Source: Flavobacteriia bacterium
GTDB lineage: Bacteria > Bacteroidota > Bacteroidia > Flavobacteriales > Schleiferiaceae
Assembly: GCA_013373425.1 (NCBI GenBank)
Contig: JABXHW010000007.1
Location: 3,429 to 67,428, forward strand
Length of the DNA stretch: 64,000 nucleotides
Direction: 5' to 3'
The translations under genes were made by a program, and so were the position numbers. Of this stretch, positions 15,670 through 18,174 are shown piece after piece. The notes below the pieces were generated by a model, which was given only the letters and a program-made list of their open reading frames with translations, ran no database searches and was not told where the DNA came from. Position 1 is the stretch's first letter; each line of letters opens with the position of its first letter.

Positions 15670-15697
15670 AAAACAGCCACACATAGGTGTGGCTGCT
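15670..15697. repeat. Hairpin/terminator, copy A of AAAACAGCCACAC-N4-GTGTGGCTGCT
   Basis: Lies between the convergent K+ channel and methyltransferase genes; arms identical to copy B at 16818-16845. Confidence 0.85.
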
Positions 15698-15725
15698 TGT
15701 TTAATGGCTCTAGCTTTTAGTTGAT

Positions 15726-16583
15726 TTAGAGACCTTTTGAACTAGCTTTTGTTGCGATGGTGAACAAGACGTTTTTCCCACTAAAGGGATCGTCTCCCAG
15801 TACGATGTCATCTTCGAATTCGACATCTCCAAATGAACTCGTGCTAAGAATGTCTTGGATAGAGTTTTCATCGTAGAAGTGATTCCAGAATCGATAGGTT
15901 TTGACACCACCGCTCTCCTCACATATGATGTGTTGATAGAGTATTACATCAGCTTCAGGATAATGAAAACTACTGGAAAGAGTTAGATGGGCCTCATTAC
16001 TCCAAAATCCAGAAGAAGCACAGCCCCAATTTATTGGACTCACTTTAGACGCAATCTCATTTTTTCTGAGAACATCAAAGATGAACTTTCCACCATCATT
16101 CAGAGATTTCGCCACTTTTTCAATTAGAAGTAATCTCTCTTTTGGAAGCAACGGCCCAAAATCGGTGTATATCAATAGCACCAAATCATACTCTTCAGTG
16201 CCTAGGTCAAGATCTAGATAGCTTCCGTGACGGTAATCTATATCTAGCCCTTGTTCAATACTACTTTGCTTTGCGTATTCTATGGAATTTAAGGAGATGT
16301 CCATCCCCGTTACAGAATGCCCAGCATTGGCAAGTATTTCTGAATATAAACCTGGTCCACAGCCTAAGTCTAGAATTTTCAACTTACGATCTGGTGCGTG
16401 TTCATCGAGTATCCAATTGATGGTTGCATGAATTGACTCTGGCTTTCTGCTCGCCAGGTCAATTTCAGGGTTTAGGTGTACTTCTAGTAGTTGTTTTGCG
16501 ATATGTGGGTCAGTCCACATGAATGCGTTGCCCGCTTCATAAAGTGCAGGTTGACTTGATGACTTCAGAATCTCTGATATCAT
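15726..16583 (-). CDS. Class I SAM-dependent methyltransferase (lower-GC cargo)
   Basis: ILDLGCGPGLY motif I; MWTDPHIAKQLLE.HLNP..D.ASR N-terminus; spot counts of three 60-nt lines give 35-42% GC versus about 48% in a flanking line. Confidence 0.9.
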   Translation of the reverse strand: MISEILKSSSQPALYEAGNAFMWTDPHIAKQLLEVHLNPEIDLASRKPESIHATINWILDEHAPDRKLKILDLGCGPGLYSEILANAGHSVTGMDISLNSIEYAKQSSIEQGLDIDYRHGSYLDLDLGTEEYDLVLLIYTDFGPLLPKERLLLIEKVAKSLNDGGKFIFDVLRKNEIASKVSPINWGCASSGFWSNEAHLTLSSSFHYPEADVILYQHIICEESGGVKTYRFWNHFYDENSIQDILSTSSFGDVEFEDDIVLGDDPFSGKNVLFTIATKASSKGL

Positions 16584-16817
16584 GATTGTATAGATTTAGC
16601 CCAATACTAGGAATAGCAAAGGGTCATTTGATGTAAATGGAAATACAAGGGAGGCTAATTATTGAAGTCTTTCAACAATCTGCCAAGTGTCTCGGAAGAG
16701 ACTAAATGATATGGAGTCTAAAGTGCCATCGATGCAAATTTAATATATCTGCACCAACCTACAAGGAAGTAATTGACCGTGATTCCGATAGCACGCTTGG
16801 CTCGATGGCTATAAACA

Positions 16818-16845
16818 AAAACAGCCACACGCAAGTGTGGCTGCT
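16818..16845 (-). terminator. Hairpin/terminator copy B, directly after the duplicated tRNA 3' end
   Basis: Same 24 arm bases as copy A with a different 4-nt loop; U-tract on the minus strand. Confidence 0.8.
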
Positions 16846-16849
16846 CTTT

Positions 16850-16867
16850 CTTGTTGCCCGACTAGGA
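16850..16867 (-). repeat. 18-bp direct repeat of the tRNA-Gln 3' end (att-like)
   Basis: CTTGTTGCCCGACTAGGA is identical to 17049-17066. Confidence 0.9.
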
Positions 16868-17003
16868 TTGACCTCCTAACGTCGGTCCGTCCTTCTAAGG
16901 GGGGCTTTGTACCCAAGTTTTAGAACGTCACTATTCCGCTGCGCTTCATAGTTCGTTTTGCATTTACAACCGTTTCGTTCAAGCAAGCTTGGCTCACAGT
17001 CCT

Positions 17004-17042
17004 AAAAGCAAAACGGCCGCTACACTTTGTGTAACGGCCGTT
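17004..17042 (-). terminator. tRNA-Gln terminator
   Basis: AACGGCCGTTACAC-AAA-GTGTAGCGGCCGTT followed by TTGCTTTT on the minus strand. Confidence 0.85.
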
Positions 17043-17052
17043 CTAAAACTTG

Positions 17053-17124
17053 TTGCCCGACTAGGACTCGAACCTAGACTGACTGAACCAAAATCAGCTG
17101 TCCTGCCAATTAGACGATCGGGCA
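17053..17124 (-). tRNA. tRNA-Gln (anticodon TTG)
   Basis: Cloverleaf: TGCCCGA/TCGGGCA acceptor stem, GCTGA-TT TTG GT-TCAGT anticodon arm, CTAGG-TTCGAGT-CCTAG T arm; CCA not encoded. Confidence 0.97.
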
Positions 17125-17140
17125 TCCTCGATTGGGACGG

Positions 17141-17148
17141 CAAATATA
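17141..17148 (-). promoter_or_regulatory. Bacteroidota -7 promoter element (TATATTTG) for tRNA-Gln
   Basis: Exact TAnnTTTG 16 nt upstream of the mature tRNA. Confidence 0.75.
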
Positions 17149-17190
17149 TAACAAACCGTCAATTCCAAAAAAGTTTGTGCTGGGGTTTTT

Positions 17191-18174
17191 TTAGGGTGTG
17201 CGCCATGCGATGATGCAACGCGCGAAAACCCAGAGGAATAAAGGGTAGGCGAAGAGAAGAACGACAGGTAGCCACGGTTGGATGAGGAATGCCAAAGGTA
17301 ACGTGAGCACTAGCCAGAAGGGTGTACCCAAAATGATGAAGCCAATTTGAAGTGTACTCTTAAAATCGGTTCTGGAGTGCGATCGTACACGATAACGCGC
17401 TAAGAGTAGAATTGGACCGAGTAAGACATACCCGATGGGAAGCGCTACAAAGCTGAGAATCTTCCAGAGCGCCATGCGACCCACAAGCTTCTTAGTGTTC
17501 TGACAATTCCAAATTGCAATTTCGTTGTCGTCATGGACCATCTCAGATAGCTTTTCGTGAGCAAGGTCGGTGAGCTGCTTTACTTTTTGTGCGTCGGATG
17601 TATCGGCACTTTCTGGGAGTACGAGCTCCTCACCAAAATTTACCCGTACATCAGGACCCCAATTCTGCCAGTCGCTGTACTCGATTACGGCAGGAATAAC
17701 GTGCACTTCTTCTCGAGCGGCTTGATGCGCCACGGCCAGCCGAGCCCAGCTCTTTTTCAGTGGACGAATGTCACGTCTGGGCGCCGAGCTTCCTTCAGCC
17801 ATCACGGCTATCGTCCCATCAGAACTTAGGTGCTCCGAAAGCTCTTGCATGGTAGCGGGCAAGTCTTTTTTCAATGACTCACGGCCGTGATCACCGCGAT
17901 ACATGGGTAGGATGCGTAAGAAGCGCAATAGTCGATTCGAAGTAGGGGTGTTGAAGAAATCCGCACGGGCCACAAACACGGGTTTACGCCTTGTGGCGAA
18001 CAGAATAGAAAGTGCGTCGGGAAGATTGTTTTGATGGTTGGTTACTAGGATGGTCGCGCCAGTCTCAGGAACATTCTCTACTCCGCGAACTTCAAAAAGC
18101 CGACAATAGCACTTTGTATACGCCCAACGAGCATAGTGGAACAAGAGTCGATATGCGAAACCGGGGTTATTCAA
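17191..18174 (-). CDS. 1-acyl-sn-glycerol-3-phosphate acyltransferase family (PlsC-like)
   Basis: NHQNNLPD (HX4D) motif, FVARADFF, AEGS; C-terminal TM helices; TTG start. Confidence 0.85.
   Translation of the reverse strand: MNNPGFAYRLLFHYARWAYTKCYCRLFEVRGVENVPETGATILVTNHQNNLPDALSILFATRRKPVFVARADFFNTPTSNRLLRFLRILPMYRGDHGRESLKKDLPATMQELSEHLSSDGTIAVMAEGSSAPRRDIRPLKKSWARLAVAHQAAREEVHVIPAVIEYSDWQNWGPDVRVNFGEELVLPESADTSDAQKVKQLTDLAHEKLSEMVHDDNEIAIWNCQNTKKLVGRMALWKILSFVALPIGYVLLGPILLLARYRVRSHSRTDFKSTLQIGFIILGTPFWLVLTLPLAFLIQPWLPVVLLFAYPLFLWVFARCIIAWRTP

Follow-up and report, generated by a model that had tools for sequence, protein, structure and literature searches.

Two Units of a Gene-less Palindromic Cassette behind the tRNA-Gln Gene of a Bacteroidota Genome and Their Relatives behind Other tRNA Genes

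Introduction

tRNA genes are the classic landing sites of integrase-bearing islands. In the window, i.e., the whole 64-kb stretch of DNA that was analysed, a tRNA-Gln gene is followed by a repeated arrangement of tRNA end, terminator and short motif, which raises the question of what this arrangement is, how it arose and how it would move. A sequence-only reading had suggested a tiny non-autonomous tRNA-targeting element or a growing cassette array, the first unit of which has no plausible gene and may be a structured RNA. We found that the tandem module is no local oddity but two copies of a small palindromic cassette that carries no gene.

Results

The Repeated Module behind tRNA-Gln

The module of tRNA end, terminator and motif is present twice, approximately 200 bp apart, and all coordinates of the first reading were reproduced. 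The features of the locus, given from the tRNA promoter onward, are as follows.

17141..17148, minus strand: promoter -7 box TATATTTG of the tRNA-Gln gene, Bacteroidota-type (match to TAnnTTTG)
17052..17124, minus strand: tRNA-Gln(UUG) gene, no encoded CCA, discriminator at 17053 (ARAGORN; Rfam RF00005, 58.3 bits)
17049..17066, minus strand: first copy of the 18-mer TCCTAGTCGGGCAACAAG (exact match)
16850..17048, minus strand: unit 1, a complete gene-less palindromic cassette of 199 bp (homologous units behind tRNA-Gln in the genomes G002, G003, G004 and G068; fold)
17004..17039, minus strand: predicted terminator A, a 10-bp hairpin (17038-17016) and T-run, the first after tRNA-Gln (sequence and fold)
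16974..16995, minus strand: 22-nt apex motif GAGCCAAGCTTGCTTGAACGAA, with stem CAAG/CTTG and loop CTTG (sequence)
16914..16973, minus strand: right arm of unit 1, complementary to the spacer, the T-run and the trailer and including a second small hairpin (fold)
16868..16913, minus strand: 3' module of GGTACAA, C-rich linker and pseudo acceptor/T hairpin with an AATCC end (conservation)
16850..16867, minus strand: second copy of the 18-mer, a spare tRNA 3' end that closes unit 1 and opens unit 2 (exact match)
16812..16843, minus strand: predicted terminator B, hairpin CAGCCACAC/GTGTGGCTG (16843-16822) and T-run (sequence and fold)
16790..16803, minus strand: motif of unit 2, first 14 nt only, with unrelated DNA beyond (sequence)
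16742-16735, minus strand: -7 box of the methyltransferase gene itself (match to TAnnTTTG)
15726..16583, minus strand: class I SAM-dependent methyltransferase gene, 285 aa (Pfam Methyltransf_25, E 1.3e-16)
15670..15720, minus strand: decayed tRNA-end-like stretch, then a second terminator-B hairpin (15695-15674) and T-run (local alignment to 16875-16812)

Unit 1 lies directly 3' of tRNA-Gln on the same strand, abutting its discriminator side. The consensus TAnnTTTG is a mark of Bacteroidota promoters, and just two such boxes were found within positions 16500-17250, one being that of tRNA-Gln. In agreement with the earlier description of an exact 18-bp copy starting at the last T-loop base, the 64-kb window contains just two exact occurrences of TCCTAGTCGGGCAACAAG, as compared with 0 expected from shuffles. 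The 18-mer spans the last T-loop base, the 3' strands of the T-stem and of the acceptor stem, the discriminator and four trailer bases (CAAG). Since it includes these trailer bases, the copy derives from the DNA of the gene and not from mature tRNA. The 14-bp motif was likewise located at both places: GAGCCAAGCNTGCT and its near-copy, identical at 13/14 positions, are found in the window solely at 16995-16982 and 16803-16790, against 0.11 expected. The full motif, however, comprises 22 nt (16995-16974), and its second copy ends after 14 nt. The 18-mer repeats with a period of 199 bp, and the motif with one of 192 bp.

Directly behind each of the two 18-mers stands a GC-rich hairpin with a T-run, seen in both sequence and fold, which bears out the second terminator of the earlier description as a structure; termination is predicted. 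The terminator A stretch showed approximately 86% identity to the module of G002, a genome of the same genus. The last 14 nt of the right arm of unit 1, CGTTCTAAAACTTG, pair with 17052-17039 at 14/14 positions to form the base stem. The 3' module, from GGTACAA to AATCC, is kept in the tRNA-Gln units of G002, G003 and G068 as well as in the tRNA-Met units of G066. Among the features of an att island, the direct repeat of the 3' part of the tRNA is present at both ends of the unit, and an integrase is absent.

Anatomy and Fold of the Units

In order from the tRNA, a unit starts with its trailer T1, followed by the terminator hairpin with its T-run, spacer S1 and the 22-nt motif, the consensus of which is GAGCCAAGCTTGCTTGAGCGAA. 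The downstream half continues with S1' and an A-run and with a second small hairpin, the apex of which is often of the GCGAAGC type; after these come T1', a C-rich linker, a pseudo-T hairpin with an AATCC end and, finally, the tRNA copy. S1' and the A-run complement S1 and the T-run, and T1' complements the trailer T1. The motif forms a stem of 4-5 bp, CAAG/CTTG with a CTTG loop, which co-varies to CGAG/CTCG and CAAA/TTTG in relatives.

The arms are matched within each unit: the alignment score was 36.6 +/- 12.3 for arms of the same unit versus 15.1 +/- 7.2 for arms of different units. The sequences of the base stems differ, e.g., CAAGTTTTAGAACG, CAAGTAAAAGAACG, CAAGAAAGAGCAGC and CAAGATTTACAACG, each being paired by its own partner. 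Folding gave a four-way junction common to seven tRNA-Gln and tRNA-Val units from different species. Unit 1 of the window took the four-way-junction fold at -80.8 kcal/mol (z -6.9) as the sense RNA, gave -64.1 kcal/mol (z -3.7) as the antisense RNA, and showed a z of -5.6 with DNA folding parameters.

In relatives, the tRNA copy at the unit end matches whichever tRNA the unit follows. The full copy is kept in 22 of 59 distinct loci, its identity beginning at T-loop nt 58-60 in 16 of these 22, and the remaining 37 loci retain just 5-8 nt of the tRNA (AATCC and 3-5 nt). The window unit keeps an acceptor/T-like minihelix only and no dummy tRNA in which a fixed hairpin replaces the anticodon arm; a dummy tRNA of this kind, with a TCCGCC-CAAG-GGCGGA hairpin, is present in the ORF-bearing units of G064 and G066.

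Distribution of the Cassettes

When a unit-core model built on sequence only was searched against 157 genomes of the same family, matches were obtained in 69 genomes from 14 of 23 genera, often in tandem with a spacing of 136-410 nt. A tRNA gene on the same strand lay just upstream in 18/20 and 22/25 of the fetched match regions (about 90%). The tRNA types followed by units are Val-TAC, Val-GAC, Met, Cys, Leu-TAG, Gln, Pro, Ser-TGA, Ser-GGA, Ser-GCT and Arg-TCT. The exact consensus 22-mer was found in 53 stretches of public species genomes, of which 45 are labelled Bacteroidota (Flavobacteriales, Chitinophagales, Saprospiraceae, Cytophagales and Bacteroidales); ARAGORN placed a tRNA upstream in 38 of these 45. 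In a Robertkochia species, the exact motif stands behind tRNA-Val. No exact 22-mer was found in a viral contig collection, and a metagenome scan with an 88-nt exact pattern gave no match. That the window units belong to a widespread family of tRNA-linked cassettes is thus well supported.

As a separate observation, the exact 22-mer is also the apex of inverted repeats in Roseburia and Acetatifactor (Lachnospiraceae) and in a record labelled Thermoguttaceae. These repeats follow the terminators of genes, and neither a tRNA nor a GIY-YIG gene was found near them.

Within the genus, G002 has the same double layout, with two mismatches over about 88 positions between its left modules; G003 has a single complete tRNA-Gln unit, and G004 has a tRNA-Gln unit with no recognisable distal tRNA copy. 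In G020, from another genus, two units follow tRNA-Val and both end in the tRNA-Val 3' end. Truncated, headless and tandem forms are all found among the relatives. In the window assembly, tRNA-Gln is the only one of 24 tRNAs found that has a downstream copy of its own end. Another contig of this assembly, C19, starts within a variant array. This array closes with a 3' end like that of tRNA-Ser and is similar to the locus at tRNA-Ser(TGA) in G002; the genome total is one complete motif-bearing unit and one variant array at a contig edge. The expectation that the motif is enriched behind tRNAs therefore held strongly in related genomes, but not behind the other tRNAs of this genome, where only the variant array was seen.

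Empty and Filled Sites and Exchange of Modules

Empty tRNA loci, the comparison proposed in the sequence-only reading, were found in two settings. In G001, of the same genus, the terminator and flank directly follow tRNA-Gln, and this native terminator and flank recur in G003 distal to the unit, the distal tRNA copy of which carries one mismatch. The second case, a pair of metagenome contigs from close relatives, came from a scan with the 18-mer: the empty allele, L152, lacks a 176-bp insert that is present in L155, and their flanks share about 93% identity. The insert sits after the T-run of a terminator common to both contigs and comprises the motif, an arm complementing the shared trailer and T-run, the pseudo-T hairpin and 8 nt of tRNA, followed by a second motif and a repeat of the 3' half of the terminator. 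The bounds of this indel are the repeat of the terminator 3' half and not the tRNA end. Either a gain of the insert or its loss by recombination between direct repeats is possible for both the L152/L155 and the G001/G003 indels.

The left modules are 86-88% identical between species, as compared with 64-73% for the adjoining coding DNA. Identity of the modules above that of the flanking coding DNA suggests exchange or constraint. The closest matches to the A-type and to the B-type module of the window genome come from different species (G002 and G003).

Unit 2 and the Methyltransferase Gene

The left module of unit 2 (16867-16795, with the 18-mer, terminator B and the 14-nt motif) shares 87.7% identity with that of G003. 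Beyond motif base 14, the sequence turns into about 1.1 kb of low-GC DNA unrelated to the cassette, with the second terminator-B hairpin at its end. The methyltransferase gene has a GC content of 41%, versus 49-50% in its neighbours, and no ortholog of it was found in the genus or the family. To judge from these sequence features, the methyltransferase DNA in unit 2 is foreign. Just past the stop codon of the gene, the decayed stretch resembles a unit 3' end with its tRNA copy, and the hairpin at 15695-15674 has arms identical to those of terminator B and a different loop. Unit 2 appears to have served as a landing place for a foreign gene. The motif breaks at nearly the same place in G002 and in L090, and with only three cases in all, unit 2 included, a hot spot is no more than suggested.

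Genes Linked to the Cassettes

The only enzyme gene that we found linked to the units encodes a small GIY-YIG nuclease. In the tRNA-Met array of G064, two units of 409 nt each carry an ORF of 84 residues that is a GIY-YIG domain (Pfam E 5.5e-12), with the longer dummy tRNA copy behind the ORF. The next two units of this array are gene-less, and their tRNA end, terminator, spacer and motif are the same as those of the ORF-bearing units. A mix of ORF-bearing and gene-less units is also present in G066 and at the tRNA-Met locus of the genus-mate G002, and an intact nuclease cassette was found in G003. No recognisable enzyme was noticed as other cargo among the ORFs listed for the 2.3-kb array of G064.

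Across genomes, the link between units and nuclease is loose. Small GIY-YIG nucleases are encoded in 43 of the 157 family genomes; 8 of 12 inspected nuclease loci lie directly behind a tRNA, and just 3 of these 12 have the 22-nt motif. Among the 69 unit-positive genomes, 21 have both unit and nuclease, and 48 have units with no detectable nuclease, the latter including all 35 unit-positive genomes of two small-genome genera. In the window assembly, no small GIY-YIG gene was found anywhere, and unit 1 has no ORF encoding one.

The statement that no integrase is nearby was extended to the entire 128-kb contig (C58), on which none was found; the genome encodes five tyrosine recombinases (PF00589), all of them off this contig. 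No recombinase was noticed beside the units at the approximately 100 loci inspected, ORFs having been listed for one array. Accordingly, of the two kinds of linked gene that had been proposed, the small nuclease was found in related genomes and the recombinase was not noticed.

Identities Considered and Rejected

Several known identities were considered for the units and set aside. A search of Rfam 15 matched tRNA alone (window at E<=10; six relatives at the gathering score), which leaves no known RNA family, and ARAGORN reported no tmRNA or other tRNA-like gene. A peptide encoded by the 9-codon ORF ATGAAGCGCAGCGGAATAGTGACGTTCTAA of unit 1 was rejected, as the ORF is absent in G002-G004. A guide RNA, i.e., a scaffold with an 18-nt guide, was considered because the variable 3' end matches its target; the copy includes the gene trailer, most units keep only 5-8 nt of tRNA, and no TnpB/IscB/Cas or IS110 gene was seen nearby. 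A retro-element primer site does not fit a copy that is same-sense and has the trailer rather than CCA. A MITE does not fit units in which the arms differ by locus and only the centre is conserved, in a genome with one complete unit and a variant array. An independent sRNA gene was rejected since no TAnnTTTG box lies inside the units on either strand.

Discussion

Proposed Homing Driven by a Nuclease

The reading that we prefer, although we consider it about as apt to fail as to hold, is that tRNA-linked cassettes spread by nuclease-driven homing. By analogy with known homing systems, a GIY-YIG nuclease would cut a cassette-free tRNA gene in or near the T-loop, and repair of the break would use a cassette-bearing copy as its template, with homology arms provided by the real tRNA and by the spare tRNA 3' end. 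Repair would copy everything between both arms and would leave the tRNA intact. Gene-less units would travel likewise only when the nuclease is supplied in trans, and arrays would grow or shrink through repeated homing or through recombination between direct repeats. At the window locus, unit 1 now provides the first predicted terminator after tRNA-Gln.

Homing would explain the fixed junction in the T-loop, the intact tRNA and the distal native terminator in G003. It would also account for arrays that grow in tandem, for gene-less units being carried along passively, and for left modules that are more alike across species than the flanking genes are. Since the window genome has no nuclease, its units are most likely inert, non-autonomous relics. 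The first interpretation of the locus as a tiny non-autonomous tRNA-targeting element or a growing cassette array stands insofar as the units are gene-less, tied to tRNAs and arrayed, but its implied att/integrase system found no support, the sole linked enzyme being the GIY-YIG nuclease.

Homing leaves the palindrome and the conserved apex unexplained, and it does not account for the persistence of units in nuclease-free small genomes. The terminator-bounded L152/L155 indel is not predicted by simple homing, as the arms of the filled allele match a terminator that is also in the empty allele. The 48 unit-positive genomes with no detectable nuclease are at least as compatible with a host function, or with a different mobilising enzyme.

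A Possible Host-Useful Element

A host function is the core of the strongest rival explanation, in which the unit is a structured cis element at the tRNA 3' end that is useful to the host and is not selfish DNA. We regard this as unlikely. Such an element could be a convergent terminator pair insulating the tRNA gene from antisense transcription, or it could be a tRNA-like four-way junction guiding the 3' processing of read-through transcripts. In its favour, the units behind tRNA-Leu(TAG) and tRNA-Met are conserved in the two nuclease-free small-genome genera, where base-stem changes compensate each other, the left arm forms a hairpin with a T-run and the right arm does so when read on the other strand, the base stem begins right after the discriminator, and the apex loop is of the CUUG type. 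Moreover, the sense strand folded better than the antisense strand in 48 of 66 units (p 3e-6), a bias that may reflect the terminator and a loop bonus only.

On the other hand, G001 and most family members have no unit at tRNA-Gln, and tandem, truncated and headless forms occur. The upstream terminator should halt most transcription before the fold, and the units have no internal promoter. The compensating changes could also have arisen by template switching at quasi-palindromes, which yields such changes without selection. Between the arms, no RNA-specific excess of G.U over A.C was found (111 versus 105 inter-arm pairs); the arm-mismatch count compared for the RNA-versus-DNA question was uninformative (136 versus 165). 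Thus, as to the suggestion that the first unit has no plausible gene and may be a structured RNA, the absence of a conserved ORF and the strong fold agree with it, whereas the unit has no promoter of its own and, since the G.U test was negative, the structured RNA is no more than a possibility.

Possible Remnants of Recombinase Elements or Products of Local Duplication

We consider it quite improbable that the units are remnants or miniatures of recombinase-driven integrative elements, i.e., CIME-like att-to-att scars depending on a tyrosine or serine recombinase encoded elsewhere. A direct repeat from the T-loop to just past the tRNA end is indeed the classical att layout at tRNA genes (PMC9897764, for the general pattern), in G003 the native terminator has been moved to a distal position, and the five tyrosine recombinases could be such enzymes. 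Nevertheless, the recombinase is missing from the 128-kb contig and was not noticed at the loci inspected, as described above. In addition, the same core stands behind at least 10 tRNA types with locus-specific arms, 37 of 59 units have just 5-8 nt of tRNA, one indel is bounded by terminator sequence, and the linked enzyme is a nuclease.

Least probable of all is a local by-product with no mobile element, formed by partial tandem duplication of the tRNA end and terminator with fold-back copying at hairpins: the arms are locus-specific and complement sequence of the same locus, the two left modules of G002 are nearly identical, and a palindrome flanked by direct repeats is a known slippage substrate, but homologous forms of the 22-nt apex, of the second hairpin and of the linker/pseudo-T module recur at different loci and tRNA types and in different genera and classes, which argues for common descent rather than local origin, the A-type and B-type modules are closest to different species, and a repeated de novo origin of the exact 22-mer is implausible.

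Comparison with Known Systems

The nearest precedent for nuclease-driven homing of the cassettes is SegB of phages T4 and T6, a free-standing GIY-YIG homing endonuclease encoded in phage tRNA gene clusters, which is thought to spread by cutting the nuclease-free allele with subsequent repair copying and is tied to tandem amplification of its region (PMC2988022, PMC13096335). In both cases, as seen in the nuclease-bearing cassette arrays, a small GIY-YIG gene lies among or behind tRNA genes. SegB is, however, a phage gene, is larger and has a DNA-binding domain, whereas the cassettes are chromosomal and occur across Bacteroidota, the window copy being nuclease-free. The spare tRNA 3' end, the 22-nt apex hairpin and the gene-less palindromic derivatives of the cassette family have no counterpart in SegB.

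Islands and prophages with tyrosine integrases at tRNA 3' ends are a general pattern (PMC9897764, citing Williams 2002). The cassettes resemble them in the intact tRNA at one end, the partial 3' copy from the T-loop region at the other, and the native downstream sequence pushed distally. Integrase islands, however, measure 5-100 kb, whereas a unit measures 0.2 kb, has no integrase, shares one core behind many tRNA types and forms tandem arrays; the many units with only a few nucleotides of tRNA likewise set the cassettes apart.

Gene-less imperfect palindromes of 100-200 bp that are intergenic and presumed to be moved in trans are also known as MITEs and as Correia, ERIC and REPIN/RAYT elements. 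These have conserved arms, high copy numbers and short target duplications. In the cassettes, by contrast, it is the centre that is conserved, whereas each locus has arms of its own; a genome has 1-10 copies, in a fixed position behind tRNA genes. CIMEs are kilobase-sized deletion products of ICEs, integrase-dependent, flanked by att sites and mobilised by accretion. A cassette unit is similar in being a segment with no recombination genes between target-site repeats, stacked with autonomous relatives, but no partner integrase was seen with the units. None of the systems compared unites a spare tRNA end with arms tailored to the locus and an apex that is conserved, and no published description of such cassette units was found in the literature.

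In a broader and likewise doubtful interpretation, the unit would be a new kind of self-folding, gene-less element, a four-way junction capped by the near-universal 22-nt apex and fitted with locus-tailored arms, which lodges behind hairpins (the tRNA T-arm and terminators) and is recognised by its shape by the GIY-YIG nuclease or another enzyme. The apex in Lachnospiraceae would then represent a cross-phylum, structure-guided insertion of DNA that could also capture genes, among them the methyltransferase gene of unit 2.

Significance of the Cassettes

Here, the tRNA niche is occupied by 0.2-kb gene-less units and by sister units with only a nuclease of about 85 residues. If homing with a spare tRNA end is true, it would allow DNA to insert into an essential gene by minimal means while keeping that gene intact, and foreign genes like the methyltransferase could come to reside behind tRNAs in this manner. 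The exact 22-mer common to Bacteroidota and Lachnospiraceae points to a putative conserved binding partner. At a practical level, the units supply the annotated terminators of many tRNA genes, their pseudo-tRNA fragments confuse tRNA annotation, and their arrays break assemblies, as in the case of contig C19, which begins inside one.

Empty and filled alleles of a tRNA-Gln locus

Two metagenome contigs from close relatives, L152 and L155, were found to form a clean empty/filled pair for a tRNA-Gln unit, differing by a 176-bp insert placed after the terminator common to both. A repeat of the 3' half of this terminator bounds the insert, whose arm is the complement of a trailer and T-run found in both contigs.

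A methyltransferase gene within the window array

In the array behind tRNA-Gln in the window, an apparently foreign stretch begins at the break point of the 22-nt motif of unit 2, the second palindromic cassette. It contains a class I SAM methyltransferase gene of low GC content (41%), flanked by two copies of one terminator hairpin:

16790-16843, minus strand, flank with terminator hairpin
15726-16583, minus strand, class I SAM methyltransferase gene
15670-15720, minus strand, flank with terminator hairpin

An ortholog of this gene was found neither in the genus nor in the family; the gene appears to be foreign and to have been captured by the cassette array. A useful contrast to the tRNA-Gln locus, within the same genome, is the ordinary integrase-island layout on contig C48, in which ~700 bp separate the following genes:

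C48:22368-22868, tyrosine recombinase gene
C48:23580-23654, tRNA-Met gene

Variation among units

Arrays of "headless" units, in which the terminator is missing along with most of the tRNA copy, were observed in three family genomes, at tRNA-Gln (L062, G068), tRNA-Val (L027 and L052, G064) and tRNA-Leu (L041, G145). These units retain a mere 5-8 nt of the T-stem strand, fused straight to the next spacer and motif, indicating that the repeating block can be smaller than a full unit. At the Croceimicrobium tRNA-Gln locus (L010), an 85-residue GIY-YIG ORF immediately follows the tRNA terminator and the 22-nt motif is absent; nuclease cassettes therefore occur both with and without the motif.

Outside the window, the start of another contig of the same genome (C19:1-470) falls within an array made up of three gene-less units of a variant type, with the motif AAGCTCGCTTGAGCGAA. 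This array terminates in a tRNA-Ser-like 3' end and is similar to the tRNA-Ser(TGA) locus of the genus-mate G002 (L065). Since the matching tRNA is missing from the window genome's assembly, arrays of this kind probably break assemblies.

The motif beyond tRNA loci

Genomes of Roseburia and Acetatifactor, and a record carrying the label Thermoguttaceae, contain multi-copy inverted repeats that have the exact 22-mer GAGCCAAGCTTGCTTGAGCGAA at their centre (L088, L091, L095, L096, L097, L100, L116 and L120). These repeats gave no Rfam match, and neither a tRNA nor a GIY-YIG gene was present in the fetched DNA. They are positioned directly after gene terminators, and the identical apex is present in two or three phyla.
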